Source: a bacterium
GTDB taxonomy: Bacteria; Bacteroidota; Bacteroidia; CAILMK01; JACPUW01
Reading direction: 5' to 3'
Assembly (NCBI GenBank): GCA_016124515.1
Contig: WGNN01000006.1
Location: forward strand, 5,638 to 69,637
Length of the DNA: 64,000 nucleotides
Each line of letters starts with the position of its first letter. The stretch's first letter is position 1. Shown here piece by piece: positions 3,076 to 28,323 of the stretch. A program made the translations under genes and the position numbers. The notes beneath the pieces are model-generated. The model was not told where the DNA came from. It saw only the letters and a list, made by a program, of their open reading frames with translations, and ran no database searches.

Positions 3076-5941
3076 TTTGGGTGAGGTACTTTTGTTGTTT
3101 TGCCAAAATTGGCTTTTGCGCCAATACTTCCTTATACACTTCTTCAAGCTCAATAGCCACCTTATCAAGCGCTTCTCCCGACTTTATTTCCAATTCAACG
3201 GCGGCCAGCCTGTTGCTCAGATGGCTTAAATTTACCATAGACATGGATGGCTTAATTTTATGGACGAGAAACTCAAGATCGTTGTAGTTGGCTTTTGAAA
3301 GCGCGTCAAATATAATACTGAAATTGGAATCAACCTCAGCAAGAAAAGTGCTGATGCTTTCGAACAAATACTTTTTATTATTGCCGTAAATAGCGCGCAT
3401 TTCATCGCTGTTGAGCTCGGGTATAAGCATGGCTGCCTGCGGCAAAGTGGGTTCTGCGTGCTGTGGCATCGAAAACTTTTCGCTTATATGCGCAATAAAT
3501 TCTACCGGCAAAAATGGCTTGGAAATAACCTTATCTATGGCCACCGCATTCACATCCACACGCAGTGCATCAATAGGCGTAGCACTCATTATATATACAG
3601 GCCGCTTGTAGCCCAAGGCACGCAGCGCGCGGGTTGTTTCAAAACCATCCTTATGAGGCATGCGGTAGTCTATTAGCACCAAATCGGGTTGCAAACCCCT
3701 GCTCAACATTTCAATGGCTTCGTTGCCATTGGCTGCCAAGGCAAGACTAACCTCGTAGGGCTGCATTATGTTTTTTATATAATCCCTTATCTGTTTAGCA
3801 TCATCAACTACCAATAAGTTTGTAAGTACTTTTTTGTTTTCATCTATTGCTACTTCGCGCTTTTGCAAACTGAGCTCATTGATGGCGGAAGCCACAAACG
3901 ACACCGTAAAACAGGAACCTTTTTCAGGGGTGCTTTCAAGGCTCAGGCTACCGTTTAGTGCACCTACCAAACCTTTTACTATACCCAAACCAAGACCGGT
4001 TCCTTCAAAATGGGTTTCTACATTGGCCGCCCTTCCGTAGTCATTAAAAATCACCTCCCGGTCTTTGGCATCTATGCCTATTCCTGAGTCAAATACATCG
4101 ATTACGAACCTGCATTTATTATCTTTCCCCGCCTCGCATTTCACATTGATACCCACAAATCCGGCGCGGGTAAATTTCAAGGCATTCGAAAGCAAGTTGG
4201 TGAGTATTTGATAAATTATCTTTTTATCAGAAATAATTCCAAATGGCAGGTCATTGCTGAGCAGGGTAATAAACTCCAAGCCTTTATCATCGGCCAACAC
4301 CTTAAAATTCTGCACGATAGACTCAAGAAAAGTACGCAGTTCAAAAGCTTCGGCATGCACATTTACCTTTCCGGCTTTTATTTTATTGTAATCCAGCACA
4401 TCGTCGACCAGGCTGCGCAAGTGGTCGGCTGCCAAACGCGCAGATTTAATATAGGAATAAAAATTTTCTTTGCTTTTTACGCCTTCCAACAGCGCCAAGG
4501 TACCCTGCAGGGCGGTAAGCGGGGTTCGCACTTCGTGGCTCATACGCGCCGTAAAGTTTTGCTCGGCACGCCGTGCTTCATCCGCCTCTTGCTTGGCTTT
4601 GCGCAGGTAGTTTTCCAGGTTTTTCATTTCGGTAATGTCAAAATGAATACCCATGCTACCGGTTACCTCGCCACGGCTGTTTTTAATGGGCGCACCTGAA
4701 ATAAGCACGTGCTTCTTGCGACCGCTTTTGGCTATAATGGTAATCTCGTAGGCACTCGACACATCTTCCTGCCGGCTGACATTGGCTGCATCGGTTATTT
4801 TTTTCTGTTCGGCGTCAACCAATATATCGCTTGCCCGCTTGCCTACCAATTCATCAGCACTGTACTCTACCAAAGTTTCAAATTTTGGAAACACTTTGGT
4901 TACCACATCATTATTATCAACTTCCAAAATACCCAGTTCCAGGTTTTCGAGCACCGAACTGTATTTCAGTTCATTCTCGCGCAAGAGGTATTCCTGTTCT
5001 TCCAGTTTGGTTATGTCATTATAAATCCACAAATGGCCCAGGTACCTTTCCTGATGAAAAATGGGAACATAATCGCGCATAAGTATGGTGCCATCCACCA
5101 TTTTCAGGTACTCTTGCGCCACCAGTTTTCGCTCGGTTATTATTTTTTCTACGCCTTTCACAAATGCTTCGGGCTCCTGAAAAAGGTGCTTGCTTTGCTC
5201 AGCTGCATCGCTGCAATCTACCCCCACCATGTGGTCGGCACTTGCCGGAATGCCAAACAGATGACAAAACTTGTCGTTGGTAAGCAAAATACGGCGGTGT
5301 TCGTCTTCCATTAGTATGGCCTGCTGCATGTTTTTAATCAGGTTGCTCAGGCGAGTACGCTCTATTTCGCGTTGTTCGGCAATGTTGCGCTGCTCGGTTA
5401 TATTGCGCGCCACCACAAAAGCACCCAAAAAATCATCGCCATCAAATAACAACTGCACATTTTGCCCCAGCCAAACCACTGCGCCCTGCTTGCTTATCAG
5501 CGGCACTTCCTTGTAAGATTTTATGCGGTTTTGGGCTATGCAATCGGCGTAAAAGTTATAAATCTCTTCTTTGTACTCTTCTTTCAGATAATCATAAAAA
5601 TGTTTGCCTTTCAGCTCCTCCTCAGTATAGCCCAGTATGTGCGCCACACCGCCTTGCACCGAGGTAAGCACTCCTTCGTGGTTGAGCTCATAAATAATAT
5701 CGGTGCTGTGCCGCAATATCGATTTCAGCCGCGTTTCGCTATCAGATAATGCCTTTGCCAAATCTGATTTGGTTTGCTCCAACTCCCAACGCAATTGCTC
5801 ATTTTGTTGCTTTATCAGCTGCGCATTTTCCAAGCCCATTTCAGCCGCTGCCCGGGCAGTCCGCTCCTTGTCAAGAGCCTGTTCCAGCTCCCGTAACCTT
5901 TGTTGCAATTCACTATCAATCAGTTCCTTTTCCTTGGCCAT
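3068..5941 (-). CDS. Cytoplasmic hybrid sensor histidine kinase (coiled-coil, PAS repeats, HisKA, HATPase_c, REC, probable C-terminal HPt)
   Basis: H-box 'RMSHEVRTPLTALQG'. ATPase boxes 'LLSNALKFT', 'DSGIGI', 'GTGLGLGIVKGLV'. REC 'LLVVDDAKQIR...LVLIDYRMPHKDG'. HPt-like tail. No TM segment. Confidence 0.9.
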   Translation of the reverse strand: MAKEKELIDSELQQRLRELEQALDKERTARAAAEMGLENAQLIKQQNEQLRWELEQTKSDLAKALSDSETRLKSILRHSTDIIYELNHEGVLTSVQGGVAHILGYTEEELKGKHFYDYLKEEYKEEIYNFYADCIAQNRIKSYKEVPLISKQGAVVWLGQNVQLLFDGDDFLGAFVVARNITEQRNIAEQREIERTRLSNLIKNMQQAILMEDEHRRILLTNDKFCHLFGIPASADHMVGVDCSDAAEQSKHLFQEPEAFVKGVEKIITERKLVAQEYLKMVDGTILMRDYVPIFHQERYLGHLWIYNDITKLEEQEYLLRENELKYSSVLENLELGILEVDNNDVVTKVFPKFETLVEYSADELVGKRASDILVDAEQKKITDAANVSRQEDVSSAYEITIIAKSGRKKHVLISGAPIKNSRGEVTGSMGIHFDITEMKNLENYLRKAKQEADEARRAEQNFTARMSHEVRTPLTALQGTLALLEGVKSKENFYSYIKSARLAADHLRSLVDDVLDYNKIKAGKVNVHAEAFELRTFLESIVQNFKVLADDKGLEFITLLSNDLPFGIISDKKIIYQILTNLLSNALKFTRAGFVGINVKCEAGKDNKCRFVIDVFDSGIGIDAKDREVIFNDYGRAANVETHFEGTGLGLGIVKGLVGALNGSLSLESTPEKGSCFTVSFVASAINELSLQKREVAIDENKKVLTNLLVVDDAKQIRDYIKNIMQPYEVSLALAANGNEAIEMLSRGLQPDLVLIDYRMPHKDGFETTRALRALGYKRPVYIMSATPIDALRVDVNAVAIDKVISKPFLPVEFIAHISEKFSMPQHAEPTLPQAAMLIPELNSDEMRAIYGNNKKYLFESISTFLAEVDSNFSIIFDALSKANYNDLEFLVHKIKPSMSMVNLSHLSNRLAAVELEIKSGEALDKVAIELEEVYKEVLAQKPILAKQQKYLTQNV

Positions 5942-6034: not shown

Positions 6035-7243
6035 TTATGCATGGTTTACAACGGCAGTTTTGCGTTTGCTTTTCTCCCACAAGGCGGTTTGGCTGCCCGC
6101 TCTGTAGCGCTTATAACCGGCCAATACAGCCACATTCATCATCACAAAATAGAAGGGCACAAACAGTAGCTTCAATTTGAGCTTGCGCTGCTCGAGCAAA
6201 TAACCAAGACCCGCTGCCAGATAAAAAACAAGCTGTGCAAACAATAACAACAGGTAAACCGGATGTGGCTCCAAAACAACCAAAGCCAGATTGGCCAATA
6301 AAATAAGTGGCAACATAAACGGCGCTACGGCCCAGCGCATGACCCTGTGCGACACAAACTCAAAGCTGCTTAAACCGTGTTTAAACGGATTGAAAAGCGA
6401 CTTTAAACGTCCGATGCTTTGAAAACCACCCGCCGCTATGCGCACTTTGCGCTTGAACTCTTCGGCTACATTTTCAGAGGCTGTTTCGGTAGCTCTTGCT
6501 TGCGGTTCATAAGCCACTTTGTAGCCGCGTTCCACCAGCCGCATACTTATCATAAAATCGTCTAAAATGCTATCAGACTCCACCTCCTCAAACAAGGCGG
6601 TGCGAATAGAAAACAACTCGCCTGCTGAACCCACCAAAGTGTGCAACTCGGCATCCATCCGCTTTAAAAACGACTCATATTTCCAGTAAATGCCTTCACC
6701 GGCGCCACTCGCACTGTCGGCGCCATCGCTTTGCACCACTTTTTCGCCACTTACACCGCCCACTTTCGCATCGCTATAATGTTGGGCCAAGTGGAGCAAA
6801 CAATTGGTATTGAGCATGGTATTGGCGTCGCAAAAAACGATTATCTCGCTTTCTATGAGTTTCATGGCGCGGTTCATGGCCGCTATTTTGCCTTTTCGCT
6901 CAGCTTGGTGCCAAACTTCAATTCCTTCTATAGGTTGCAGGGCTTCGGGTGTACCATCGTTTGAGCCATCGGTTACAAACACTATGCGCAATTTGCCCGG
7001 CTCGTAAGCCAATTGAAGCGAATTTTTTACCTTTTCTATAATAAAATCCACCTCGTTGAAAGATGGAACCACCAAGGTGCAGCTGGGCAAATTTTCTGAC
7101 TTCAGCTCAACGGGGCGTGTGCCTTTCTTGGCAAAGATTCTTTTGATTTTTACCATTACAAAAACCAGCACCGCATAGCCAAGATAGGTGTAAAACACCA
7201 GAAAAAGGGCAAGCCAGAATATGGTTTCTATAAGGGTACTCAT
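6035..7243 (-). CDS. Membrane-embedded family 2 glycosyltransferase (synthase-like, C-terminal multi-TM)
   Basis: N-terminal TM, GT-A core ('VTDGSNDGT', 'VFCDANTM'), QxxRW-like 'RKVRIAAGG', 4-5 C-terminal TM helices. Confidence 0.75.
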   Translation of the reverse strand: MSTLIETIFWLALFLVFYTYLGYAVLVFVMVKIKRIFAKKGTRPVELKSENLPSCTLVVPSFNEVDFIIEKVKNSLQLAYEPGKLRIVFVTDGSNDGTPEALQPIEGIEVWHQAERKGKIAAMNRAMKLIESEIIVFCDANTMLNTNCLLHLAQHYSDAKVGGVSGEKVVQSDGADSASGAGEGIYWKYESFLKRMDAELHTLVGSAGELFSIRTALFEEVESDSILDDFMISMRLVERGYKVAYEPQARATETASENVAEEFKRKVRIAAGGFQSIGRLKSLFNPFKHGLSSFEFVSHRVMRWAVAPFMLPLILLANLALVVLEPHPVYLLLLFAQLVFYLAAGLGYLLEQRKLKLKLLFVPFYFVMMNVAVLAGYKRYRAGSQTALWEKSKRKTAVVNHA

Positions 7244-7247
7244 GGAA

Positions 7248-8009
7248 TTAAGCTTTTTTCCAAACGGTATAAAAACCGCTGGTAAAACCTACAGGAAGGG
7301 CATCGGCTACGGCACAATCCAATTTTTGCAAGGCCATAATGCGGTTGGTGAGAAATGAGTATGGAAACACCGCTTCCACAAAATTGGCATTCTGAATTTT
7401 CTGAATTTTAAAGCGGGCTTTATCGGCCAACTCGTTCAATGCCTTTCTGTTGAAAAACTGCACATGCGTAAGGTCGGCAGCAGCTGACTGTACCGTAGTG
7501 CCGCTGTAGCCCAGGCTCGACTTGGTATTCATCATCATTTTTTTCATAGTGCCGCCCCTGCGGTAAATGGCCTGCATGGGCTTGGTCATCAACACTTCGC
7601 GCGGGCCGTAGCCGTTGGGCACTGTTACCACCAGCACGCCATCATCGGTGAGAATATCGTGCAATACCGCCACCAATTTTTCGGGTTCATCCAAATGCTC
7701 AAGCACTTCGCTGCACACTATGGCTTTGTAACGTTCGCCGTTATCGCGCAGTTGCTCTGCAGGCCGCACCTCAAAGCTTACGTTGGTGTAAGGATTGCGT
7801 TTTTTTGCCACTTCAATGGCATCGGGGCTAATATCTATGCCTTTCACATCGTAGCCTTTTTCGCCCAAAAACAGGCTGATATTGCCGTTGCCACAGCCAA
7901 CATCAAGCACCTTTCCCTGCTCGCCAATTGCCTCTTTTATATTGTTATAAATAAAATTAAGGCGTTTTAAATCCTCGGCTTTTGAGTATAAAATCAATTT
8001 ATTTTCCAT
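7248..8009 (-). CDS. Class I SAM-dependent methyltransferase
   Basis: Motif I 'VLDVGCGNGNISLFL', post-I acidic 'DISPDAI', 'IVCSEVLEHL'. Confidence 0.85.
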   Translation of the reverse strand: MENKLILYSKAEDLKRLNFIYNNIKEAIGEQGKVLDVGCGNGNISLFLGEKGYDVKGIDISPDAIEVAKKRNPYTNVSFEVRPAEQLRDNGERYKAIVCSEVLEHLDEPEKLVAVLHDILTDDGVLVVTVPNGYGPREVLMTKPMQAIYRRGGTMKKMMMNTKSSLGYSGTTVQSAAADLTHVQFFNRKALNELADKARFKIQKIQNANFVEAVFPYSFLTNRIMALQKLDCAVADALPVGFTSGFYTVWKKA

Positions 8010-9136
8010 TATTGTAATATTTCATTATACACTTCCAATGTTTGCAGCGCGGTATTGCGCCAGGTAAATTTTCGGGCGTTTTCAAAACCCAATGCCACCA
8101 GTTTATCACGCTCGTCTTTATTATTTGTCAACTCGGTCATGGCGGCGGCCATCTCTTGTATTTTTTCAGGATTTATGAGCCTTGCTGCGCCACCGGCCAC
8201 CTCGGGCATAGATGAGGTATTGGACGTAATAACCGGCACACCGCAAGCCTGCGCTTCTAGAATGGGAATGCCAAAACTTTCTCGAAATGATGGATAGATA
8301 TAAAAGCTGCACAAATTGTAGAGCAAGGGTAACTGTGCGTGTGGCAGGTAGCCCGTAAGCACAAAATGCTCACGGTCGCCAAGGGCTCCGAATTCTTTTA
8401 ATGTATCAGTTAAAAACGCCTCTGTACACTCTACAAGCACCAGCGGCAATGGCTGCTCGCACTGCGTTCTGTATTGCAAATAAGCTTTTATGGAGCCTTT
8501 CATATTCTTTTTCGGTGCCTGATTGCCCAGCGAAAGAATGAAGTTCGATGGCAAATTGGGCTGCTGTTTCCTGAACTCATTCAGCGCTTCATTATCATAA
8601 GTTTTGAATTTGTCGTTGAGCCCGTTGTAAACCACTTTTACCTTATCAGCCGGCAATTGCAGTTTGGCCACAATTCGGGCTTGCTCATAAGCCGAAACCG
8701 TAATGATTTTTTGCGCCTTGCGCACCACGGCAGGCACATTGAACCTTCGATATACGTTGCCAAAATTTTGGTATGCGGTGCCGGTAAAGGCCAGTTTTTC
8801 AAGGTAAATAATATCGTGCAGGGTGATGACCAAAGGCCATTTGACACCCACAGGAGCGGTATTGCTGGTGCAGTGCAACAAATCTATTCCGGCTTTTTTG
8901 GCAGCTTTTGGAAGGGCTATCTGCTCCCAGTCAACGTAAGTTTTGCCGGGTACTTTTACGATTTGCATATTGGCACTATCGGTCAGGCAAGTATGGTCTT
9001 CATCGTCTTTTACAAACACCACAAACTCGTGTTCAGAAGGCAGTTGTTGCAGCTCTCTAAGCACCTCAAGTGCCACTATATCCATACCGTGTTTGTGCGG
9101 TCGGAAAATGCGCTGCGCCTCAATACCAATTCTCAT
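8009..9136 (-). CDS. GT4/GT1-family glycosyltransferase
   Basis: GT-B C-terminal signature 'ESFGIPILEAQACGVPVITSNTSSMPEV'. Start trimmed to 'MRIGIEAQ' (cat at 9134-9136), which abuts the next gene. Confidence 0.85.
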   Translation of the reverse strand: MRIGIEAQRIFRPHKHGMDIVALEVLRELQQLPSEHEFVVFVKDDEDHTCLTDSANMQIVKVPGKTYVDWEQIALPKAAKKAGIDLLHCTSNTAPVGVKWPLVITLHDIIYLEKLAFTGTAYQNFGNVYRRFNVPAVVRKAQKIITVSAYEQARIVAKLQLPADKVKVVYNGLNDKFKTYDNEALNEFRKQQPNLPSNFILSLGNQAPKKNMKGSIKAYLQYRTQCEQPLPLVLVECTEAFLTDTLKEFGALGDREHFVLTGYLPHAQLPLLYNLCSFYIYPSFRESFGIPILEAQACGVPVITSNTSSMPEVAGGAARLINPEKIQEMAAAMTELTNNKDERDKLVALGFENARKFTWRNTALQTLEVYNEILQ

Positions 9137-10320
9137 GAGCCTTTTGTTTTGTGGTTGACATGTGTATGTGGGGTATGAATAAATGAATTTTTCGCCCGGT
9201 TGATTTTGAGCAGCGAAGCCATCATATTGAGCACCGCGCCGGGCATATATGCCAGCGTTCCCAGCATTTGCAATGAGTAGAATTGGCGCGGAATGGCCAA
9301 CATCATTGCCAGCACAAAAACCAGTGAAAAAAGGAGGTTCAATTGGAGCACCGCGGGCAAATGAAGAAGCCAACCCACCACCGTGAGCCCAAGCAAAGCG
9401 GCCATGGTGAGTGCACGAGGAAGCAAGGCAAATTGCAAAGCTTTGTCGAACAAAACCGGACTGCCCGTTGATATAAAATTGCGCAGGCCTTCGCCAAAGT
9501 ATTTGAGCGCAAAATTTACCTGAGCAGCCAACCACCGCGTGCGTTGTTTTTCAAAAATGGCTGCGTTTTGCACTTTTTCGTCAAGCACCACGGCATCGTT
9601 GAGAAAAGCCACCTTTATGCCGCGTTTAATCAACTGTACTTCAAGCTCCTTGTCAAAGCCACTTACAACGTCTATTTCGCTCATTACCTGCTTGTACATC
9701 TGGTATTCAAAAGCCATGGCCGAGCCAATAAGCGCTGAAGGCAGGCCCAAGTGCCAGTGGCCGCGGCGGAAAATTGAATTGTTTATTTCCTCGCTCATGG
9801 CATCGAGGCGGGCAAAGGCGGTATCGGTGTTTTTTGCGGTGCGATGACCCTGCATGGCCGTGTATCCATTTTGATAGGCGGCATTCACTTTTTTCAAAAA
9901 TCCGGGAGCCATCAGGTTGTCTGCATCCAGCACCACCGCCAGGTCATAAGTTTCTTCAAGCGCTGCCATTACCGTGTTCAGGCTTTTGGCTTTGGTACTT
10001 TTTTCAAACGACACTTCTTTGAGCACAATGGGCATTTGGCGCAGTTGCACCAAGGTTTCCTCCGAAAATGAATCGGCTATAACCACCACATCATAATGGC
10101 CGCAGTACTGTTGGTTGAGCGCATCACGCGCCACATCGCAAATGATAATGTCTTCCTTATAACCGGGAATAAACACCGCAATACGGGCAAATTTGTCGGT
10201 TTCGCGCAGCCTTTTTTCTTTGTAAAAAACAGAAACAAAAGCAAAAAAAGCAACGTAAAACACGCCCAGCGCCACATAGGCAGTAGCTATAAGGAGTATT
10301 ATATTCAAAGTTTGCATCAT
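9133..10320 (-). CDS. Membrane family 2 glycosyltransferase (synthase-like)
   Basis: N-terminal TM, 'VVVIADSFSEET', DxD 'VVLDADN', C-terminal TM helices. Confidence 0.8.
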   Translation of the reverse strand: MMQTLNIILLIATAYVALGVFYVAFFAFVSVFYKEKRLRETDKFARIAVFIPGYKEDIIICDVARDALNQQYCGHYDVVVIADSFSEETLVQLRQMPIVLKEVSFEKSTKAKSLNTVMAALEETYDLAVVLDADNLMAPGFLKKVNAAYQNGYTAMQGHRTAKNTDTAFARLDAMSEEINNSIFRRGHWHLGLPSALIGSAMAFEYQMYKQVMSEIDVVSGFDKELEVQLIKRGIKVAFLNDAVVLDEKVQNAAIFEKQRTRWLAAQVNFALKYFGEGLRNFISTGSPVLFDKALQFALLPRALTMAALLGLTVVGWLLHLPAVLQLNLLFSLVFVLAMMLAIPRQFYSLQMLGTLAYMPGAVLNMMASLLKINRAKNSFIHTPHTHVNHKTKGS

Positions 10321-10324
10321 GGTA

Positions 10325-11236
10325 TCAGTTCTTGAATTGAAAATTGGCCGGACTTATATGCCAAAGCAGGCCACGCCATTGGGCTTTGGCCAGGGTAAAT
10401 TTTCCTTTTACGAGCTTCTTTATCAAGTGTAGCGGATTTGCAACCAAAACTAGGTAGGCTATACTAATGAAGCGGGTAAGGCCAACGAAATTTCGCCGAG
10501 CCAACAAAATGCGGTTTCTTGTTTTGTAGTATTCTTTCAACGGACTTTGCTTGCCTACGCTCATGCTTTCTTTGTGGTAAATAAGTGAGTCGTTTTCAAA
10601 CCAAATCTTAAAACCCGCCTTTTGCAATTGCAGGCACCAGTCAAGTTCTTCGTAGTACAAAAAGTAGCCGTCCTCCATGGTTCCGGCCTTTTCTATGGCT
10701 TTTCGCGAAACGGTCATGGCGGCGCCGTGTGCCAAGTGGGTGTAGCCCGATGCGTATTGGCCGCGGTCTTGCTGCCCCCAGCCAATAGCAAAACTGGTGA
10801 GCGTGTATGGATTCAATTGGGTGCTACCCGCATATTGCAAAACACCCGGACTGTGCAAAAACTCAATTTTTGAGGCTACCACCCCCACATCTTCATGACT
10901 TTGAAAAGCATGTACAATGGGTTCGGCAAAATTTGGATGAACCACCGTGTCGTTGTTGAGCAACATAATATACTGCCCTTTGGCCACCGCTATGCCCAGG
11001 TTGTTGCCACCGGCAAAGCCCAGGTTTTCATCGCTGCGAATAACCTGCACTTCGGGAAAGCTTGCATGAATGGCCTCCGCCGGATTCTCTTTTGATGCAT
11101 TGTCAACCACTATTACTTCTATGGCTTCAAAGTGGGCTGCTTTTATTGATTGCAGCATTTCGAGCGTATCGGCGGTACCATTGTAGTTGACGGCAATGAT
11201 AGACAACACCGGATTTTTATGTGCTAATGAAGCCAT
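10325..11236 (-). CDS. Family 2 glycosyltransferase (soluble GT-A)
   Basis: 'LSIIAVNYNG...VIVVDNAS', 'LLNNDTVV'. Confidence 0.85.
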   Translation of the reverse strand: MASLAHKNPVLSIIAVNYNGTADTLEMLQSIKAAHFEAIEVIVVDNASKENPAEAIHASFPEVQVIRSDENLGFAGGNNLGIAVAKGQYIMLLNNDTVVHPNFAEPIVHAFQSHEDVGVVASKIEFLHSPGVLQYAGSTQLNPYTLTSFAIGWGQQDRGQYASGYTHLAHGAAMTVSRKAIEKAGTMEDGYFLYYEELDWCLQLQKAGFKIWFENDSLIYHKESMSVGKQSPLKEYYKTRNRILLARRNFVGLTRFISIAYLVLVANPLHLIKKLVKGKFTLAKAQWRGLLWHISPANFQFKN

Positions 11237-12144
11237 GCGGATAAGTCGCGGTTTAAAATGGTTTGCAAAAGCTCAATATCGTTGCGGTAGATCTCCTTGG
11301 TCATTTGAAGTTTCAGCGCTTTGTCGAGGGGCATTTTCTCCAGGTTTTTGTTGCGCCATTTGTTTACCTGCCTTTTCAGTGCCTCGCTTTCCTTTACGGC
11401 CTTTACCAACTGCGGCGACACTTTGTTGAGTGTTTTTACAACCGCGCTGTTTTGGCCTATCAGGTAGTCGAGTTTTTTGCTTTTTATGCGCCCCGATTTG
11501 TTGAACTCATCCGAGGTTGCAGGCTCAAAATCGGGGTCAACGCCTATGAATTCAAATAAGTCGTGCAACAGTTCTTTGGGCTTGTTGCGCAGGTCTTCGT
11601 ACAGAAATACTTTGATTTGATCCTTTTGAAAAAGCTCGTAATAGCGGCTCAGATAGGTTCCGTAGAAACCCTCGGTAACCAAATCGTTGCGGCGCCACCA
11701 AATGGTTTCTTTGTTGAGCGCATCAGCAAAGCTGCCTTTGGGCTCACGGCTTTCGCGCACCAAGTGCATGTAGCGGCTGTAGAGGCGCTCAACCGGTTGG
11801 CGCAGAATGGCCACCAATTTTACTTCAGGAATTTTATCTTTTATGCGTTTGGGCGCTTCGGGGTGGTACAAATACATGGGCGACACCTCACCTACCGCTT
11901 TGTATCCACTTGCCTCTCTAAACAAATTGAGGTAATCGTCCAGGTTATTTACCGCCCAGGGATAGTGTGCCGTTTGTTCTTCGCTGTCGTCTTGCTGTTT
12001 TATTTCGCTCCCTTCAAGGGCAAAAAAGTTGGTCTCCTTTACTGCACTCATAAATACTTGCGGATGTTGCTTCAGGTATTCGTAGAGCGAGGTAGTGCCC
12101 GATTTGCCGGCACCAATTATGATAAAATCAGGCAATTGCGACAT
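11224..12144 (-). CDS. Sulfotransferase-family protein (PAPS-dependent)
   Basis: 5'-PSB P-loop 'IIIGAGKSGTTSLYEYL' and 3'-PB-like 'ILRQPVERLYSRY'. Start trimmed to 'MSQLPDF'. The Cys/Trp-rich 54-aa N-extension is read-through into the flippase gene. Confidence 0.75.
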   Translation of the reverse strand: MSQLPDFIIIGAGKSGTTSLYEYLKQHPQVFMSAVKETNFFALEGSEIKQQDDSEEQTAHYPWAVNNLDDYLNLFREASGYKAVGEVSPMYLYHPEAPKRIKDKIPEVKLVAILRQPVERLYSRYMHLVRESREPKGSFADALNKETIWWRRNDLVTEGFYGTYLSRYYELFQKDQIKVFLYEDLRNKPKELLHDLFEFIGVDPDFEPATSDEFNKSGRIKSKKLDYLIGQNSAVVKTLNKVSPQLVKAVKESEALKRQVNKWRNKNLEKMPLDKALKLQMTKEIYRNDIELLQTILNRDLSAWLH

Positions 12145-13420
12145 GGTTGTTTCTTTTAAATTTAACTTGATAGCCCAGTCTTGACAACTGCAATTTGAGC
12201 AACAAATAGCCCACCAACACGCCCGCCAACGCATTGAGTACGGTAACGGCAGCCACGGCCACCAGGCTTTGCAACCACCACAGCACCAGCACATCGCCCA
12301 GTACATTGAGCAATACCATGAGCCACACTTTTATGGCATTGAATTTTGGCTTGCCTGTGCTGTCGATAGCTACGCCCAGCAAGCGGTCAATCGGTAGCAA
12401 CATTACATAGACCAAAAACACGCGCAGCACATGGTGGGCCTGTGCCATATTGTTGCCACCGGCGGCTACCACCAGGTATTTTGCAGCAAACAGTGCCAAC
12501 AAGGCAGCAGGCACATACCAGCGAAGCAGGCGACCGATTTGTTGTTGCAGCAAAAGAGCAACCGCGTGGTATTTGCGCATGCCAAAAAGGGCTGATATTT
12601 TAGGAAAAATAACTTGCGCGGTGCTTCTAACAGGAATTTCGGCTATCTCAAGCAACTTGAGCGGCACATTGTAAATAGCCACCGCCTCGGCTCCTATAAA
12701 AGCGGCAATGAGAAAGTTATCTGCGCTCTTGAGCAGGTTGGTGCCCAACAAGGTGGCCACGCTAAACCTGCCGAATTGCCACAGAGCGCTCATTTGCTCC
12801 ACATGTGGCGATAGAATGGCAGTAGTAACTTCTTTGTTGCCCAAAAGTGAAAAAACCGTAGCCAACAACCTGATAGCGCCATGCAAAAGCACCAATTGCC
12901 ACAAACTAAGCGGCCACCACAAAGAGGCAAGTGCTATCAAGGCCAAACTTGCGGCGGGCAATAAATTGAGTGCAGCCATGCGCCCCATGCGGTGAGCAGC
13001 CTGCGACACCCAAATATCGAATTGCGGCACCAAAGAAACTATGGAAACCAATGGATAGCACATAAAAAACAAGGCAATGCCGCCATGATGTCCTTTATAA
13101 AACAGGAAGTAAATCACCAGCAAACCCAAACCTGCAACTACGCTCAATAGCAGCGAGAGGTAAAAGGCTGCGCTTCTGATATGTTTTTGTGTTTCTTCGT
13201 TTTTAGCTGAAGCGGCCAAATGCACCATGCCCTGCCTCACCAAACCGGTGCGCACCATTTCGGCCAGGTTGAAGGCCGTGATATACAACACCCACTCGCC
13301 AAAGGTGGCCAGCGACAAACCGCGCACCAGAATGAAAAAAGTAACGAAACCAAATCCGGCGGTCGCCAGGTTTGACAGCGTTACCAACTGAGTGGGCGAT
13401 ATGTTTTTAGTAATCTTCAC
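12128..13420 (-). CDS. Wzx-type oligosaccharide flippase (polysaccharide biosynthesis protein, MOP superfamily)
   Basis: About 12 predicted TM helices and the typical Wzx N-terminus 'LATAGFGFVTFFILVRGLSLATFGEW'. Confidence 0.8.
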   Translation of the reverse strand: MKITKNISPTQLVTLSNLATAGFGFVTFFILVRGLSLATFGEWVLYITAFNLAEMVRTGLVRQGMVHLAASAKNEETQKHIRSAAFYLSLLLSVVAGLGLLVIYFLFYKGHHGGIALFFMCYPLVSIVSLVPQFDIWVSQAAHRMGRMAALNLLPAASLALIALASLWWPLSLWQLVLLHGAIRLLATVFSLLGNKEVTTAILSPHVEQMSALWQFGRFSVATLLGTNLLKSADNFLIAAFIGAEAVAIYNVPLKLLEIAEIPVRSTAQVIFPKISALFGMRKYHAVALLLQQQIGRLLRWYVPAALLALFAAKYLVVAAGGNNMAQAHHVLRVFLVYVMLLPIDRLLGVAIDSTGKPKFNAIKVWLMVLLNVLGDVLVLWWLQSLVAVAAVTVLNALAGVLVGYLLLKLQLSRLGYQVKFKRNNHVAIA

Positions 13421-14603
13421 TGGTAAGTACCAAGAGGTCTTCTATAACGGTTGAGAATTGCTCGGCACGGTTGGCCCAGCTGTTGTTGGCGGCAAAAGCA
13501 CTGCGTGCGCGCCTTTTTTCCATTGAATCGTTGTTGAGTTCGCGCGCCATGGCCGCGATAAAATCTTCCCTGTTTTCGGCAATACTTATAAACTCATGAA
13601 ACTCGTGCAAAGGGGCAAAATGGGTGCTTACCACCGCCTTGCCCGCCGCCAAATATTCATTTACCTTTAGTGGATATACATTTTTGGTAAATTCATTGGT
13701 AATGAATGGAATAAGCCCCAAATCGACTTCTTTCAGTTCAGCAGCCAACTCCTTGGGTTGTTTGGCTCCTGTAAGCTGCACATTGGCATACTGTCGCTCC
13801 AGGGCATGAGCTCGATCGTCGGTGACACGACCAATGAGCTTGATTTTACAGTTTTCAAAATTCTTTGCCACCGCCTCAAGCAAGTCAAAGTCCAGGCGGT
13901 TGTCAACCGAGCCAATATAGCCTATGGTTTTTTGCGCCGAAATTTCTTCTTTCATGGCTGTAGCAAACAGGTCGTGGTCCACCCCGTTTTTTACCAGAAA
14001 GCAATTGGCATTTACCTTCGATTTGCTTTTGTACAAACCCTCAGAGGTTACCACCACACCTTCCACTTTGTCCATGTAGGCATTTTCAACCGCGGGTCCG
14101 TGCACCTTGCACCAATCGGCAGCGCTTATCTCGTCGTAGCAATAGTAGAGGGTCATGCGCTCGTTGAAATGGTAGAGCAAAGGCAGGCCAAACTGTGGAT
14201 TGAAGGCATTGATAACAATAGGCTCTTGAAAGTGGAGCTGTTGCATGGCCTTGTTTATTTCCTTGCCCACCCGCAGGGCTTGCCTTTCCTGCATTTTGTG
14301 GTAGGCAGCATCAGATTTAATCCAATTGGTAGGCACCACGGGCGGCGGGTACAGGATAAACAGTTCGCCGTTTGGAAACTTTTGCCTGGAGTGCAAACGG
14401 CCATTTTTACCTGATATAAGCTGCTCAAGTTCGGTATTGCCATGCAAGCGCGCGTTGAACAAATCTTTGTAGGTGTAGGCGTAGTTAACATAAAGCACGC
14501 GGTTGTGGCGCGCCAGTTGGGCCATCAGTTGCACTACGGCTTTCATATAATCGCCATCCCAAGTGGGCAGGGCGTGGCATATTATGTCGTGTCCTTGTAT
14601 CAT
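13407..14603 (-). CDS. GT4-like glycosyltransferase (GT-B fold)
   Basis: Start trimmed to 'MIQGHDIICHALPTWDG' (cat at 14601-14603, overlapping the upstream stop). Two Rossmann-like halves; similarity to the GT4 family is weak. Confidence 0.65.
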   Translation of the reverse strand: MIQGHDIICHALPTWDGDYMKAVVQLMAQLARHNRVLYVNYAYTYKDLFNARLHGNTELEQLISGKNGRLHSRQKFPNGELFILYPPPVVPTNWIKSDAAYHKMQERQALRVGKEINKAMQQLHFQEPIVINAFNPQFGLPLLYHFNERMTLYYCYDEISAADWCKVHGPAVENAYMDKVEGVVVTSEGLYKSKSKVNANCFLVKNGVDHDLFATAMKEEISAQKTIGYIGSVDNRLDFDLLEAVAKNFENCKIKLIGRVTDDRAHALERQYANVQLTGAKQPKELAAELKEVDLGLIPFITNEFTKNVYPLKVNEYLAAGKAVVSTHFAPLHEFHEFISIAENREDFIAAMARELNNDSMEKRRARSAFAANNSWANRAEQFSTVIEDLLVLTSEDY

Positions 14604-16639
14604 GCCAGTACGTTTTGTTTTGAAAATTCGAGGCGGGCCATGCGTTTGATAAATCTTTTGATAAAGCTTCGTTTCACAGGCAATTCGCCAATAAGTGTAT
14701 CGAGCCAAAAGGTGCTCATACCATTTATTACCAGTCTGATATTGGTAATGCCTGCCTCTTGCATGAGTTTGAGCATGCGTTTTTGGCCTTGACCCCAACT
14801 TTGGTTGGCCAGCACCACCCATACCACCAAGTCGGCTTTTTCAAGATCTTTTATTGAGAAATCGCCGGTGCGGTGTGCTTTGCTTTCTATCAAATCGGCT
14901 TGCAGGTTGTTGTTGGTTTTTTCCCAATGCTGCTGCATGAGTTGGATGAAATGCGATTTGCCTTCGCATTGGTCTGAACTGATGATGTGTACCTGCGGTT
15001 TGGCTACCCCGCTGAGGGCACTTTCAATAGAAACGCCGGTAAAGTTGACCGCCCGCGCCGTGATTTCGGGGTATTTTTTGACGGTTTTGTTGTTGAGGTT
15101 GGGAATACCGCCTGCCACTTGCAGACCGGTTATATTTTCAGCTCCCTCGGCAGACCGCATGCCGTTGTTTAAAAACTCCGTAAGAAATGCGAAGCCAAGA
15201 ACCAGCATTAGGCCTGCGAGAAAAGCTGTGACGACCAATAATTTTCTTTTTGATGGCAGCGGATCAAGCGGAAGCGAGGGTTCATCAACCACGGTAAGGT
15301 TGGCTTTCATGGCCACACTTTGCTCCTTTATTTTGGCTTGGTTAAGGCCATGCAGTATTTCCAAATATTCGCGTTCGGCCACATTCACTTTTCTTTCAAG
15401 TTTTGAAAGCTGCGAACCCAGCGGGGCAAACTTGTCGTACTTGCGCTCTATTCCTTCCATTTTCACTTCAAACTGCGCCACGCGGGCTTTGGCTTTATCT
15501 ACTTCTATCATGTAGTCCAACCACTCTGAAAGCAAGCGGCTTACGGGCACACCTTCAATAGAATGCGACAAATCATACAGGCCAAAAACCGAGGCTTTTA
15601 TCTTTTTGGTAAGCTCATCAGCTCTTTTTTCAAGGTCGGGAATTGAAGGGTTTTCGGGTTCGCTTACCGAAAGAAAAGTAAGCTTGGTATTGATGGTAGA
15701 AAGCTCCTTTTTGAGCAGGAGTATCTCATCGTTTTGCTCCGATATTTTTTCGCTGATTTTGAGTTTGGCTTCCAACTCATCGCGCGCCGACTCCGCCGCC
15801 CTTTGGGCCATTATTTCCTTGTGGTATTCATCTTCGGCATCTTCTTGCTTTTCGGCTATGTAGCGGGTTTGCTCCTGGTAGTTTATGATGCGGTTTTGCT
15901 CGCGAAAATCCTTTAGCTCCGCCTCGGCAGCACTCAGTCGGTCAAAGGCCAGTTTCAGTTGTTGTTCAAAATATTTTACGGCGTTTCCTGTTTCAGATTG
16001 CTTCAGGTCGCGGTAGCGTTCCAACACGGTTTTGAGGTAGATGACCAAGGTTTTCTGGCATACGCGCGGGTCGTGGGTTTGGTAGGCAATTTCAACCATA
16101 TCGCCCGCCCCTTTGCGTTTCACATCAATTTTGCCAATGGTGCGTATGCTGTAGAAGCTTTCGCTGGTGTGCAGCAGTTTTTTGAAGAAAATACCCGTGG
16201 GCGACTGCACGGAATCGCGCAATGCCTTGGCAATGGAATCGGCATTGGCCAACTGCAAAAAAGGCGCGCGCAGCTCTTCGGGAAACCCGGTTTGAAACTC
16301 TTCCCAATCTTTGGCATTCATGGGGGTTTTGCCTTCTTTGAGCATAACCAAATGGTAGGCAAGCAGGTCTAGCCCCACTTGCTCTATGGTGTTTCTTGAC
16401 TTGGCAATATTGAGAAAGTTGTCGAAGGCACTGTTGACGGCGTAGTTGTCAAAACGCTCATTTCCATCGGACTCTATGTTGTAGCCCGAAGCCAGTCCGG
16501 TATAAATCATAGCGCCCGACTGGTACATTTTCTGTTCGTTTTTGGTAGCAAAAAATACCGTGATCGCAAGCACAACCGGCACCACTGCAAGGGCAATGAT
16601 GTAGCGGTAAACGAGCTTTATGATCTGGTAGAGTTTCAT
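14600..16639 (-). CDS. Polysaccharide chain-length determinant / Wzc-GumC-like copolymerase with a degenerate C-terminal BY-kinase-like domain
   Basis: N-terminal TM, long coiled-coil periplasmic region, second TM. Walker-A-like 'VHIISSDQCEGKSH' and Walker-B-like 'DLVVWVV', but no C-terminal tyrosine cluster. Confidence 0.75.
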   Translation of the reverse strand: MKLYQIIKLVYRYIIALAVVPVVLAITVFFATKNEQKMYQSGAMIYTGLASGYNIESDGNERFDNYAVNSAFDNFLNIAKSRNTIEQVGLDLLAYHLVMLKEGKTPMNAKDWEEFQTGFPEELRAPFLQLANADSIAKALRDSVQSPTGIFFKKLLHTSESFYSIRTIGKIDVKRKGAGDMVEIAYQTHDPRVCQKTLVIYLKTVLERYRDLKQSETGNAVKYFEQQLKLAFDRLSAAEAELKDFREQNRIINYQEQTRYIAEKQEDAEDEYHKEIMAQRAAESARDELEAKLKISEKISEQNDEILLLKKELSTINTKLTFLSVSEPENPSIPDLEKRADELTKKIKASVFGLYDLSHSIEGVPVSRLLSEWLDYMIEVDKAKARVAQFEVKMEGIERKYDKFAPLGSQLSKLERKVNVAEREYLEILHGLNQAKIKEQSVAMKANLTVVDEPSLPLDPLPSKRKLLVVTAFLAGLMLVLGFAFLTEFLNNGMRSAEGAENITGLQVAGGIPNLNNKTVKKYPEITARAVNFTGVSIESALSGVAKPQVHIISSDQCEGKSHFIQLMQQHWEKTNNNLQADLIESKAHRTGDFSIKDLEKADLVVWVVLANQSWGQGQKRMLKLMQEAGITNIRLVINGMSTFWLDTLIGELPVKRSFIKRFIKRMARLEFSKQNVLA

Positions 16640-16643
16640 GCTG

Positions 16644-17405
16644 CTAATAAAGGAATGATTCCAATGATTTGCCTACTATTATTTCCATTTGGTAGTAGAG
16701 GTTTTCGTAGTTGGCCTGTGCCTGCTCAAGCGATACTTCGGCCTTTGATTTTATTGAGGTAATACGCGCCAGCTCGGTGATGTGTATTTCGCCTTGTCTG
16801 AACTCCTTTTCGGCCATTTCGAGTTGTGCGTTGAGGGTATAATAGGTTTCGGTATATACAATCACCAGTTTTTTGGCCAGTTTGAGTTCGGTATAAAGTT
16901 GGGTAATGTATTGGCTGAGCTCCTGCTTGGCTTTGTCGTATTTGAATTCACTCATTTGTTTTTCGGCTTCGGCGCGCTCAATGAGTTGACCGCGGCCAAT
17001 CACATCGAAAAGCGAAAGCCTGGCGGTAACTCCAGCCCGCAACACATTGCCCGCCCCCAGCGACACCGATTCATAGCCGCCGCCATTGCTTGCCACGGTA
17101 AGGGCGTTGTAGTTGTTGGCATAAAAAGTACCCGCGTCGGTAAAAATGCGGTTGGTCCATTCTCTTTTTCTCACGCCCAATTCGGCTTCAAAGCGGGCTA
17201 TTTCCGCCTCGCTCAGTTTCAAAACGGGCGAATATTCCTGGGCAGCTTTTATTAGAGAATCGAGTGGTGGCAATTCGCGCTCGAGCACATCGGGCAATAC
17301 AATGGCACTATCGAGAGTGGCCACCGTATCTACAGGGCCTGCCAAAGCCCCGGCAATGGGGCTTATGAGCAGTAAACCAACCATATAGAAACTTATTTTA
17401 TACAT
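16644..17405 (-). CDS. Half-size TolC-like outer-membrane protein (single OEP repeat, 253 aa)
   Basis: Signal peptide and the TolC/OEP-type helical-repeat motif 'LDSLIKAAQEYSPVLKLSEAEIA'. Only about half the length of a canonical TolC. Confidence 0.55.
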   Translation of the reverse strand: MYKISFYMVGLLLISPIAGALAGPVDTVATLDSAIVLPDVLERELPPLDSLIKAAQEYSPVLKLSEAEIARFEAELGVRKREWTNRIFTDAGTFYANNYNALTVASNGGGYESVSLGAGNVLRAGVTARLSLFDVIGRGQLIERAEAEKQMSEFKYDKAKQELSQYITQLYTELKLAKKLVIVYTETYYTLNAQLEMAEKEFRQGEIHITELARITSIKSKAEVSLEQAQANYENLYYQMEIIVGKSLESFLY

Positions 17406-18561
17406 TTTCTTGCTGTAAAAGTGCGGGAAAAGTTTTGAGAATTATTTTGAGGTCGTACCACAACGAGTAGTTGCGTGCGTATTCATTGTCCATTTCTATG
17501 CGTTCTTCCATGCTCACTTCTTTGCCGCGTTGCAACACCTGCCACAAACCGGTAAGTCCGGCGGGAGCCAAAAAGCGCTCCACATAGCCATCGGCAGTAA
17601 GTTGCTCAGCCTCGTAGAGCGGCAGCGGTCGGTTGCCCACCAACGACATGTGCCCCAGAAATACATTGATAAGTTGCGGCAATTCGTCGATACTGGTATT
17701 GCGCAATATTTTGCCCACTTTGGTAATGCGCGGATCATTTTTAAATTTCATAAACACGCCCCCATTTTGTTGTTCCTGGTAGCGCTTGTATTGGTATTCG
17801 CACACAATATTGCCATCAAGAACCAATTGCGGGCTGCAAGGTTCGCCTTTGGCTTCGCAACGTGGGCAGTGGTGCAGGTCTATTTCTTCAGTTTGCTCGG
17901 CGGCATACATGTTCAAGCCTTTCAGTTGGTCAAGCCTTTTGTCGGCATCGGTGTACATGGTTCTGAACTTGATGAGGTTGAAAATGCGGTAGCCCGAACC
18001 CACGCGTTTTGACAAATAAACCGCCGGCCCTTTGTCTTCAATTTTAATGGCCAACATAACCAAGAGAAACAAGGGTGAAAGCAACAGCAGGGCAAAGCCA
18101 CTTACTACAATATCAAAAATGCGTTTGTCGAGCGGGGTTTTTACCGAACTTACAAAATGGCCGCTGTCTGCAAGTTTTTTTGAGCGCGGCACCGGATTGC
18201 TTTTAATTGAATCTACAAACATTTTTGCCTGGTTTTTAATGTTATAAAACGAACTTCCCTTTACCTTTTTCAGCTCATTTTCAATAGCCTGTGATTTGTT
18301 TTCGAGACCGGAAAGAATAAGCGCCACGTGGTTTCGCTCCAAGTAGCGGCGCATTTTACTTACTATAAATAAAGCCGTGTCAGAACAGTCAGCCACAATG
18401 GTCCTGATATTATTATTACGCACGGCCTTTTTCACTTCGTCAATGGTATGCGGTTGCACAATTTGTAGCTTGTTGGCAAAAGCTGCGCGGAGCAAATGCA
18501 CGGTTTCTACAGATTCGCCAATAAAAATCAGGGGTTTGTTTTGGGCTGTCATGGCTTTCAT
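17398..18561 (-). CDS. Undecaprenyl-phosphate sugar phosphotransferase (Bac_transf family; initiating enzyme) with an N-terminal receiver-like soluble domain
   Basis: Catalytic C-terminus 'IDELPQLINVFLGHMSLVGNRPLPLYEAEQL', 'NDPRITKVG'. Single TM 'IFDIVVSGFALLLLSPLFLLVMLAI'. N-terminal ~130 aa soluble domain. CxxC...C...C insertion. Confidence 0.85.
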   Translation of the reverse strand: MKAMTAQNKPLIFIGESVETVHLLRAAFANKLQIVQPHTIDEVKKAVRNNNIRTIVADCSDTALFIVSKMRRYLERNHVALILSGLENKSQAIENELKKVKGSSFYNIKNQAKMFVDSIKSNPVPRSKKLADSGHFVSSVKTPLDKRIFDIVVSGFALLLLSPLFLLVMLAIKIEDKGPAVYLSKRVGSGYRIFNLIKFRTMYTDADKRLDQLKGLNMYAAEQTEEIDLHHCPRCEAKGEPCSPQLVLDGNIVCEYQYKRYQEQQNGGVFMKFKNDPRITKVGKILRNTSIDELPQLINVFLGHMSLVGNRPLPLYEAEQLTADGYVERFLAPAGLTGLWQVLQRGKEVSMEERIEMDNEYARNYSLWYDLKIILKTFPALLQQENV

Positions 18562-18570
18562 TTTTAGGGA

Positions 18571-18951
18571 TTAGTTGAGCATTGAAGCGCTTATCCGCTC
18601 TATTTTCATATCGAGTTCCATAGGATTGAAAGGCTTGTTGAGCACATCTACCGCGCCCAGGGTGTAGGCTTTTATGCGGTTTTCGCTTTTGCTGGCTGAG
18701 GACAGGATGAGCACCGGAACCTTGGCCGCCGGGGTGGATGCCAGGTGGTTGAGAAAGTCGTAGCCATTCATGCGTGGCATGTCCAAATCGGCAATAATCA
18801 ACTTTGGCAACTCGTTGTTGGCCAACCACTCAAGGGCTTCCACACCATCGCCTACCATAGCTACTTTGTACTTGCGCGACAGAAAAGTTGACAGAAACTT
18901 TCTCATCATCTCGTGGTCGTCAACTATCAGTATTTCTTCTTTCTTATTCAT
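18571..18951 (-). CDS. Single-domain response regulator (CheY-like)
   Basis: 'ILIVDDHEMMRKFL...LIIADLDMPRMNGYDF...KPFNPMEL'. Start trimmed to 'MNKKEEILIVDD' (cat at 18949-18951). Lies 10 bp upstream of the sugar transferase gene. Confidence 0.8.
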   Translation of the reverse strand: MNKKEEILIVDDHEMMRKFLSTFLSRKYKVAMVGDGVEALEWLANNELPKLIIADLDMPRMNGYDFLNHLASTPAAKVPVLILSSASKSENRIKAYTLGAVDVLNKPFNPMELDMKIERISASMLN

Positions 18952-19400
18952 GGTTTCAATAATTTGATGATTCAAAACTAAAAAGCACCATAGGGCGGCT
19001 TGCGATTGTTCGGTGTTTGGTAGCAAACACTCGGTTTTTGGTGTTGCTTCGGGTCTTATTGGTTTTACCGTCAATCATTACCTGCCTACTTTGCCGATTC
19101 AATATTAGAATGGGTTCATGGGCCTGTAAAACCATTCACCGAAACTGAATCTATGTTGGGCCGGGCCGTGAACAGCCTGAGCAAAAACGTGGCTTATTGC
19201 TGTTTTTCAATCCTTTAGCAGGATCAATAACAGATAATTATCAGTTTGGTGGTTTTTGTGGCGCCGCTGTATTTCTGTCTATTGTTTGCGCAAAGGCATA
19301 CACGCAATTGCTTTCCATTTGTTTTTCAATATGTTAGCTCATCAGAAATGTGCTTCCTGATGTTTTTTCGACTAATTGTAGGGAAGGTTTATTTCATAAA

Positions 19401-19437
19401 AAAAGCCGCAGGGTCTCCCAAACCTGCGGCTTTTGCA
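19401..19437 (-). terminator. Rho-independent terminator for the 19509..19886 receiver gene. It could work in both directions.
   Basis: A-run, then 'gccgcagg', an 11-nt loop, 'cctgcggc', then 'tttt'. A perfect 8-bp GC-rich stem with a T-run on the minus strand and an A-run on the plus strand. Confidence 0.6.
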
Positions 19438-28223: not shown

Positions 28224-28245
28224 AGCCAATTTGGTACTATAGCAT

Positions 28246-28289: not shown

Positions 28290-28323
28290 ATTTAACTATG
28301 TTGCGGCTGAAAAATCGGTTAAT

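Follow-up and report, generated by a model that had tools for sequence, protein, structure and literature searches.

A Bacteroidota exopolysaccharide operon that pairs a half-size TolC-like protein with a Wzc-like co-polymerase and is predicted to build a sulfated, methylated glycan

Positions 6035-18951 of a 64,000-nucleotide stretch of contig WGNN01000006.1 (assembly GCA_016124515.1; hereafter the window, to which all coordinates without a locus name refer) carry a polysaccharide operon of an uncultured member of the Bacteroidota. Overall, we are somewhat inclined to believe that this one operon makes a lipid-linked heteropolysaccharide that would be flipped by Wzx, sulfated and methylated, polymerised by a Wzy encoded elsewhere, and exported through a duct formed by a Wzc-like polysaccharide co-polymerase (PCP) and a half-size TolC-like outer-membrane protein, here called OEP½. 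We regard as evenly poised the broader proposal that a half-TolC hexamer or octamer seated on a Wzc-like PCP is a further class of translocon, one that replaces Wza/OPX across many Bacteroidota and that here serves a sulfated, O-methylated glycan with no Wzy encoded in cis and possibly with no Wzy at all.

Organisation of the operon

Listing of open reading frames (ORFs), together with Pfam and NCBIfam scans, resolves 6035-18951 into 12 tightly packed genes, all on the minus strand, with no space for further ORFs among them. When gene starts are set in line with the lengths of homologs, seven of the 11 junctions are overlaps of 1-31 nucleotides and the other four are gaps of 4-9 nucleotides. 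An earlier note on this DNA had described twelve co-directional, mostly overlapping polysaccharide genes and had named 11 functions; every gene that it named is recovered with its coordinates, the domain content bears out a polysaccharide locus, and the twelfth gene proves to be a single-domain response-regulator receiver that opens the operon (18571-18951, ATG at 18951; Pfam Response_reg, E 8e-27). A hairpin followed by a T-run at about 19395-19437 lies behind the preceding receiver gene, with a spacer of about 440 nucleotides before the operon, and together these features mark what appears to be its start. No fewer than four further lineages (L001, L004/L019, L007 and L008; L numbers denote the loci fetched for comparison) share the 12-gene order, at 41-85% amino-acid identity, and this recurrence argues that the arrangement is not due to chance. 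The window belongs to a metagenome-assembled genome whose protein records include MBI1182694-MBI1182707 (locus tags about GC194_00375-00440); L007 comes from JAGDZV01, L008 from JBMYOR01 and L019 from OWNT01000066, a contig of 322 kb.

A half-size TolC-like protein beside a co-polymerase

The OEP½ gene (16644-17405) overlaps the gene for the initiating transferase by 8 nucleotides and is separated from the PCP gene by a gap of 4 nucleotides. Its product has 253 residues, begins with a signal-like hydrophobic segment that is a predicted signal peptide, and contains one OEP stretch (PF02321, E 7e-24) that covers positions 1-187 of the 187 in the profile. The predicted layout is helix, beta-hairpin, long helix, helix; the AlphaFold2 model has confident helices at 60-92, 132-203 and 209-244, and the top Foldseek matches in the PDB are CmeC, OprM, TolC and VceC, the alignment spanning about half of each target. 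Against the NCBIfam TolC model the protein scores 32.7 bits, where the cut-off is 225, and its NodT score is likewise far below cut-off. A full-size TolC-type protein of the normal kind is encoded as well, the 493-residue OMF with two OEP stretches, which shares a canonical RND efflux operon at 55530-61295 (minus strand) with a HlyD-type membrane-fusion protein (MFP) and AcrB. It provides an internal contrast to OEP½, and hhalign gave no meaningful alignment between the two.

When 1.84 billion cluster representatives were searched with a profile, 1181 proteins matched at E<1e-3 and 397 of them at E<1e-10, and nearly all of the best 150 listed are 220-300 residues long. With so many relatives, uniformly of about 250 residues among those 150, OEP½ is a genuine family and not a fragment. 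In NCBI records the window copy is a 'hypothetical protein', and that of Gelatiniphilus marinus, a flavobacterium in culture, a 'TolC family protein'. A scan of genome contigs with an OEP½ alignment as query gave four loci, none of them from the organism of the window. At the end of a 6-kb contig, one called gene (L011:4166-6118; P0156, 650 residues) fuses an Acyl_transf_3 inner-membrane acyltransferase to a half-size OEP domain, which is either real or an artefact of gene calling or assembly.

The genomic context of the family is strikingly constant. In 16 of 16 informative contexts, that is, loci with enough flank around the gene (the window, L001, L004/L019, L007, L008, L009, L010, L012, L013, L014, L015, L016, L018, L050, L054 and L058), the OEP½ gene lies directly upstream of a gene for a Wzc-like PCP of 670-850 residues, across a range of OEP½ sequences whose identity to the window copy falls to about 25%, and in 11 of the 16 a receiver-fused initiating transferase gene lies directly upstream of OEP½ in turn. 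The pairing is also present in cultured (marine) Flavobacteriaceae; cultured carriers are Gelatiniphilus marinus (WP_388015085.1), Polaribacter sp. M15 and Lutibacter holmesii. No MFP and no ABC, RND or MFS partner for OEP½ is encoded in the operon, where the partner gene is that of the PCP, and no MFP, pump or Poly_export gene was found in the eight related contexts with precomputed Pfam assignments for all called genes. Poly_export was likewise absent from the 25 commonest families of 110 unassigned flanking ORFs, a survey that leaves room for one or two occurrences. The suggestion of the earlier note that a TolC-like protein might serve as exporter is thus strengthened by the PCP neighbour in every related locus examined. 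Our literature search, whose coverage was incomplete, turned up no paper on a half-size TolC, on the pairing of a TolC-like protein with a PCP or on such a protein as exporter in a Wzx/Wzy locus; the pairing is widespread in Bacteroidota and not described in the searchable literature, which is not proof of novelty.

The PCP itself (14600-16639, 679 residues; Pfam GNVR, E 1.4e-7) is of fold class PCP-2a. Two transmembrane (TM) segments found by hydropathy scan (14-32 and 467-485) flank a periplasmic coiled-coil region of about 430 residues, the AlphaFold2 model (pLDDT 82) has long helices at 191-446, and the top Foldseek match is full-length Wzc (E 2e-15). A profile of the family matches PslE (1.7e-14), CapAB chimeras (2e-11) and Wzc (6e-10) in the PDB, and also MinD and VpsO. 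The protein carries the Walker A sequence SSDQCEGKS, conserved across the family as a Walker-A-like EGK[ST]; the Walker B-like motif is deviant, IIE(L)P or DLIES, the former being the one conserved in the family. After Walker A it is without some 50-90 residues that are present in 715-800-residue relatives from Wzy-bearing cassettes, and this shortened P-loop domain (14600-15200) is common to the sulfotransferase-bearing lineages that have no Wzy in their cassettes. There is no tyrosine in the last 40 residues of the PCP, and the tail of the family is basic (GELPKKRS...). The description of this protein as Wzc-like holds for the fold and has to be qualified for the cytoplasmic P-loop domain, which is shortened and has no tyrosine cluster.

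A derived form of a widespread cassette

The operon encodes five glycosyltransferases (GTs), two of family GT4 and three of family GT2, and these connect it to a much larger set of loci. BLAST against all fetched loci, which include 80 metagenome loci from a scan centred on GT2c, finds orthologs of all five at 40-56% identity in related cassettes, many with Wzy_C. At least 391 metagenome stretches are related to GT2c, and many of the 80 loci kept are Wzy-bearing cassettes, in which PCP-Wzx-Wzy-GT2a-GT2b-GT4b-GT4a-GT2c is a common order, with the initiating transferase and OEP genes upstream where the flank suffices. Wzy_C proteins of 483-499 residues are Pfam-confirmed in L010, L012, L014, L015 and L016. 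In two further loci, L094 and L096, GT2c adjoins a classical Wzz-domain PCP, and the neighbours tested there for Wza gave no Pfam domain.

Taken singly, GT4a (13407-14603; Glyco_trans_1_4, E 4e-9) is weakly TuaH-like (NCBIfam TuaH, E 1.4e-27, below cut-off) and has orthologs in the Wzy-bearing cassettes L012, L013, L015 and L016. The soluble GT2a (10325-11236; Glycos_transf_2, E 1e-22) has orthologs at 44-53% identity in Wzy-bearing cassettes, GT4b (8009-9163; Glycos_transf_1, E 5e-26; Glyco_transf_4, E 6e-15) is represented there likewise, and GT2b (9133-10320; Glyco_tranf_2_3, E 2e-23), which has TM segments at both its N- and C-terminus, occurs alongside Wzy in L010, L012, L015, L016, L022 and others. 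The last gene of the operon encodes the membrane-anchored GT2c (6035-7243; Glycos_transf_2, E 2e-19), for which the closest structure in the PDB is 6YV7 (annotated as 'Glycosyl transferase, family 2'; E 6e-13). The flippase gene (12128-13420; Pfam Polysacc_synt, E 2e-17) specifies a Wzx-type member of the MOP superfamily with ten hydrophobic segments by hydropathy scan, named 'oligosaccharide flippase family protein' by NCBI. No ABC transporter of the KpsMT or Wzm-Wzt kind is encoded in the operon.

The earlier note had called the two GT2 proteins with TM segments synthase-like and had concluded that the locus mixes Wzx-dependent and synthase-like features, and one might accordingly imagine a hybrid or synthase assembly in which the QxxRW-bearing GT2b, or GT2c, polymerises processively in place of Wzy. 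GT2b does resemble such enzymes in its flanking TM segments and its cellulose-synthase-like DAD and QRTRW motifs (all 38 orthologs carry QRxRW), and GT2c has weak matches to PgaC/IcaA, NodC and cellulose synthase. GT2c, however, has KRKVRIAAGG in place of QxxRW (KRK[IV]RIxAGG in its orthologs), and the NCBIfam synthase scores of both TM-bearing proteins lie below cut-off (for example EpsU, E 1e-18, for GT2b, and PgaC_IcaA, E 1e-26 and far below cut-off, for GT2c). There is neither a TPR/beta-barrel porin of the AlgE, BcsC or PgaA type nor a PilZ domain; the locus has instead an initiating transferase and Wzx, with which a translocating synthase would not be expected to work. Orthologs of GT2b and GT2c are standard in cassettes that carry Wzy_C, so both are ordinary members of a Wzx/Wzy cassette and did not arise as replacements of Wzy. 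We therefore consider polymerisation by a synthase to be very unlikely, and the idea of a mixed locus is weakened; of the two proteins only GT2b has the QxxRW motif.

The window cassette appears to be a derived form of a widespread Bacteroidota cassette of the Wzx/Wzy type. A sub-lineage made up of the window, L001-4, L007, L008 and L019 has a sulfotransferase, a methyltransferase and no Wzy in cis, and, judged by these comparisons, it is one that gained the two decorating enzymes. We also considered two known kinds of locus. A Nod-factor-like trio of NodC-, NodS- and NodH-like enzymes is rejected on the Nod matches, which are far below cut-off, on the presence of an initiating transferase, Wzx and a PCP, and on the orthology of the GT2 proteins. 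A PEP-CTERM/XrtA exopolysaccharide (EPS) locus is rejected as well: pepcterm_ChnLen reaches 101.8 bits where 278.85 would be required, EpsB_2 and stp1-3 also stay below cut-off, and there is no exosortase in the window.

Decorating enzymes

The sulfotransferase (11224-12144) matches Sulfotransfer_3 and Sulfotransfer_1 above cut-off (E about 2e-16) and has both motifs for binding of 3'-phosphoadenosine 5'-phosphosulfate (PAPS) intact, GAGKSGTT at residue 11 and RQPVERLYS at residue 115. Its nearest structures are 3RNL, a bacterial sulfotransferase (1e-47), and the heparan-sulfate enzymes NST and 3-OST (about 1e-10). Among the fetched loci, orthologs occur only in L001-4, L007, L008 and L019, and the gene lies between Wzx and GT2a, in the slot that Wzy occupies in L027, L040 and L044. 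No protein of the locus is better conserved than the S-adenosylmethionine (SAM)-dependent methyltransferase (7248-8009; Methyltransf_23, E 6.5e-25; 78-85% identity), and the orthologs of this enzyme, again among the fetched loci, are confined to those that bear the sulfotransferase. Both enzymes claimed for the locus from the outset are thus present, and a sulfated product is a reasonable prediction from the intact motifs.

The slot after Wzx is not always filled in the same way. In L012 an acyltransferase stands where the window has its sulfotransferase, which suggests that decorating enzymes may be swapped at this position. An Acyl_transf_3 gene is also conserved near the cassette (22371-23588, plus strand, and L001:2209-3384, 60% identity). 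In L050 (9074-9913) and L054 (9084-9920) a gene of the inositol-monophosphatase family, a family that includes CysQ-type PAP phosphatases, lies directly upstream of GT2c, with no sulfotransferase within reach.

The proposed pathway and its alternatives

Consider a single repeat unit as it might pass through this pathway, pieced together from what is known of each family and from the gene content, folds, motifs and synteny seen here. The initiating polyprenyl-phosphate sugar-phosphate transferase (PGT), fused to a pseudo-receiver, would start the unit on undecaprenyl phosphate, the five GTs would lengthen it, and the sulfotransferase and methyltransferase, drawing on PAPS and SAM, would decorate it at the cytoplasmic face. 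Wzx would then flip the decorated unit, and a Wzy encoded outside the locus would polymerise such units, this being the weakest link in the chain. The polymer would exit through a periplasm-spanning assembly of the PCP and OEP½, in which OEP½ takes the place of Wza/OPX. Each OEP repeat would contribute a beta-hairpin together with a helical unit, so that six copies could restore a TolC-like barrel, and eight would match an octameric Wzc. Initiation might itself be under phosphorelay control, by way of the stand-alone receiver, the pseudo-receiver of the PGT and an adjacent hybrid kinase.

Neither Wzy_C nor a Poly_export protein is encoded in the locus or anywhere in the 64-kb window by Pfam scan of all its ORFs of at least 150 residues, and a hydropathy scan of the window found no Wzy-like multi-TM ORF. 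Its only four multi-TM proteins are Wzx, the Acyl_transf_3 protein, a receiver protein with six TM segments (521-2158) and the AcrB pump. The absence of Wzy and Wza reported for the locus thus extends to the whole window. The sulfotransferase-bearing relatives likewise have no Wzy in their cassettes, and none was seen in the flanks covered, which reach about 10 kb upstream for L001, L004 and L007 and 5.6 kb downstream for L019.

Several observations weigh against the pathway as drawn. With no Wzy in 64 kb or in the flanks of the relatives, a Wzy in trans is an assumption; the shortened P-loop domain of the PCP could mean an altered mechanism; and the window contains no genes for PAPS synthesis. 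Residues 88-128 of OEP½, the beta-hairpin region, have low pLDDT in the AlphaFold2 model, with two conserved strand-like motifs. OEP½ is a credible component of polysaccharide export, tied to that role by synteny and fold alone, and an OPX protein could be encoded elsewhere in the genome, short OPX proteins being common in Bacteroidetes (PMC9601211).

The last of these points lead to an alternative in which a Wza-type OPX protein elsewhere exports the polymer, and OEP½ is not its exit but an accessory or stabilising partner in the outer membrane, or a component of small-molecule export. The number of short OPX proteins in Bacteroidetes speaks for it, as does the reach of the OPX search, which covered the window and cassette contexts. 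We nonetheless judge this arrangement quite unlikely in view of the invariant PCP neighbour and the close or overlapping junctions in the window, the lack of any MFP, ABC, RND or OPX gene in the annotated cassettes, and the length of about 250 residues that is kept across distant lineages, again among the best 150 listed.

A second alternative does away with polymerisation. Here the six-sugar unit would stay unpolymerised, and a single sulfated, methylated oligosaccharide, flipped by Wzx, would be released through the PCP and OEP½ or transferred to lipid or to proteins, for example the LruC lipoproteins encoded nearby or a general Bacteroidota O-glycosylation target. Wzy is missing from all five sulfotransferase-bearing lineages and their flanks and present in cis in nearly all other cassettes, the sulfotransferase sits in what is elsewhere the Wzy slot, the cytoplasmic domain of the PCP is shortened in exactly these lineages, and LruC genes are multiplied beside sulfotransferase-bearing loci. 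The same lineages have nevertheless kept their PCP, at 67-70% identity, and the known role of such proteins is tied to polymerisation and export of polymer. Moreover, Pfam finds no oligosaccharyltransferase or ligase of the Wzy_C or WaaL type in the window, and absence in cis is compatible with a Wzy elsewhere in the genome. We hold a product made without Wzy to be unlikely, and continue to favour a Wzy in trans because nearly all non-sulfated relatives of the cassette carry Wzy in cis and because the PCP is retained and conserved.

Receivers and neighbouring genes

The PGT (17398-18561; Pfam Bac_transf, E 1e-60; NCBIfam EPS_sugtrans 254.9 bits, below the cut-off of 295.55) consists of an N-terminal receiver fold of 135 residues (18157-18561), one TM segment (151-169) and the catalytic domain. 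The N-terminal domain aligns with stand-alone receivers by hhalign (probability 98.9, E 1e-17); as its acidic DD pocket and conserved lysine are missing, it is a pseudo-receiver. An aspartate at the position of the phospho-acceptor persists in the sulfotransferase-bearing lineages alone; the other cassettes have lost it. In most cassettes the operon begins with the stand-alone receiver, whose orthologs hold the same position in L001, L004, L007, L010, L012, L013 and L016.

Parts of two-component systems are unusually dense around the locus. On its far side a hybrid histidine kinase with PAS, receiver and Hpt domains (3068-5941, minus strand; Pfam PAS, HisKA, HATPase_c, Response_reg and Hpt) is followed immediately downstream by a LytTR response regulator (2383-3168, minus strand; Response_reg and LytTR), and a similar hybrid kinase adjoins the cassette in L004. 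Kinase and regulator are a candidate phosphorelay that may feed the receivers of the locus. Beyond them lie the receiver protein with six N-terminal TM segments (521-2158, minus strand; 545 residues, the receiver being C-terminal) and then a small receiver protein (129-524, minus strand).

On the other side of the operon is a gene for a predicted lipoprotein with an LruC domain (19933-22005, minus strand; DUF4842, E 1e-63; DUF4114, E 2e-26; NCBIfam LruC_dom above cut-off; lipobox LSQGC). One to three paralogs lie beside the cassette in L001 (80-2137 and 4315-6390), L004 and L007 (4-1599, 1872-3962 and 4252-6387). LruC genes are also found in more distant cassettes, namely L050 (6641-8698) and L054 (6717-8780), where they adjoin the OEP½ gene, and L037 and L073. 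The literature on LruC and DUF4842 that we found is confined to antigen work in Leptospira; from their position, these lipoproteins may be matrix or EPS-associated surface proteins.

Two further features of the window stand apart from the operon. A low-GC island on the plus strand (26673-37102; G+C 0.35-0.39, against about 0.45 elsewhere) contains a PLD-SNF2 helicase/nuclease (28324-31653), a DNA methyltransferase of the Eco57I/MmeI type (31655-35041), a putative AbiC (35013-36080) and several ORFs without a family, and has the look of a defence island gained by horizontal transfer. At 40938-47735 (minus strand) there is a complete MoxR-vWA-beta-propeller ternary system, with bpX3, bpX0/bpX1, bpX2, bpMoxR and bpX4 domains.

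Significance and comparison with known systems

If the proposed export route is correct, a half-size TolC-type duct joined to a Wzc-like protein would be a structurally different solution to export across the outer membrane, one that links the ducts of tripartite efflux with the translocons of capsules, which have so far been treated separately. It would also provide a present-day example of the one-repeat stage that, on current views, preceded the duplication behind TolC. Because cultured marine Flavobacteriaceae carry the module, the proposal is directly testable. The sulfated, methylated variant would offer a genetic handle on sulfated bacterial exopolymers, with their place in marine carbon and sulfur cycling, and its sub-lineage would be a natural experiment on Wzy leaving the locus.

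With TolC-type proteins such as TolC, OprM and CmeC, OEP½ shares the OEP repeat PF02321 and the unit of helix, beta-hairpin, long helix and helix. It has one repeat in about 250 residues, whereas those proteins have two in about 450-490, and a trimer of it therefore cannot make a 12-stranded barrel; its partner, moreover, is a PCP and not an MFP with an ABC, RND or MFS pump. One member of the TolC/OMF family, NodT, has been implicated in the export of lipo-chito-oligosaccharides. Among PCP-dependent pathways, the Psl system of Pseudomonas contributes the best PDB sequence match of our PCP family, PslE, with an alignment that runs through the periplasmic region and the P-loop. Psl uses an OPX protein, PslD, whereas the window has no OPX gene.

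Sulfated EPS loci are known from other phyla, the xss cluster for synechan being a cyanobacterial example. In Pontiella, as here, sulfotransferase genes lie within a polysaccharide locus for sulfated exopolymers (PMC7356697). The present operon differs from both in phylum, in its export module, in having no Wzy in cis and in its added methyltransferase.

The nearest overall likeness is to the Wza-Wzc pathways of the Escherichia coli group 1 capsule and colanic acid (PMC12881504), with which the operon shares a PGT, several GTs, Wzx and a PCP of Wzc fold that combines two TM segments with a helical domain in the periplasm; related cassettes carry Wzy_C as well. It departs from those pathways in having no Wza/OPX gene and a half-size TolC-like protein in the neighbouring position, in a PCP whose P-loop domain is deviant and shortened and which lacks the tyrosine cluster of Wzc, in a PGT that has a pseudo-receiver in place of the N-terminal membrane domain of WbaP, and, in the window sub-lineage, in having no Wzy in cis. 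A precedent for a component other than Wza beside a PCP in the outer membrane of a Wzx/Wzy pathway is the myxobacterial pair EpsY/EpsX (PMC9601211; bioRxiv 10.1101/2022.02.11.480155), but that pair keeps a periplasmic OPX part (D1D2) and an 18-stranded AlgE-like barrel, whereas here there is neither, and a TolC-type repeat only. The known routes across the outer membrane, namely Wza-type OPX proteins, composites of OPX and beta-barrel proteins (PMC9601211; bioRxiv 10.1101/2022.02.11.480155), porins linked to synthases and, for slime, secretins (PMC12475490), include none for such polymers that uses a TolC-type repeat. With its single repeat and no MFP or pump, the system is not a classical OMF, and, with no tyrosine cluster, its PCP is not a classical Wzc; it works most like a Wzx/Wzy pathway in which the outer-membrane component has been substituted.

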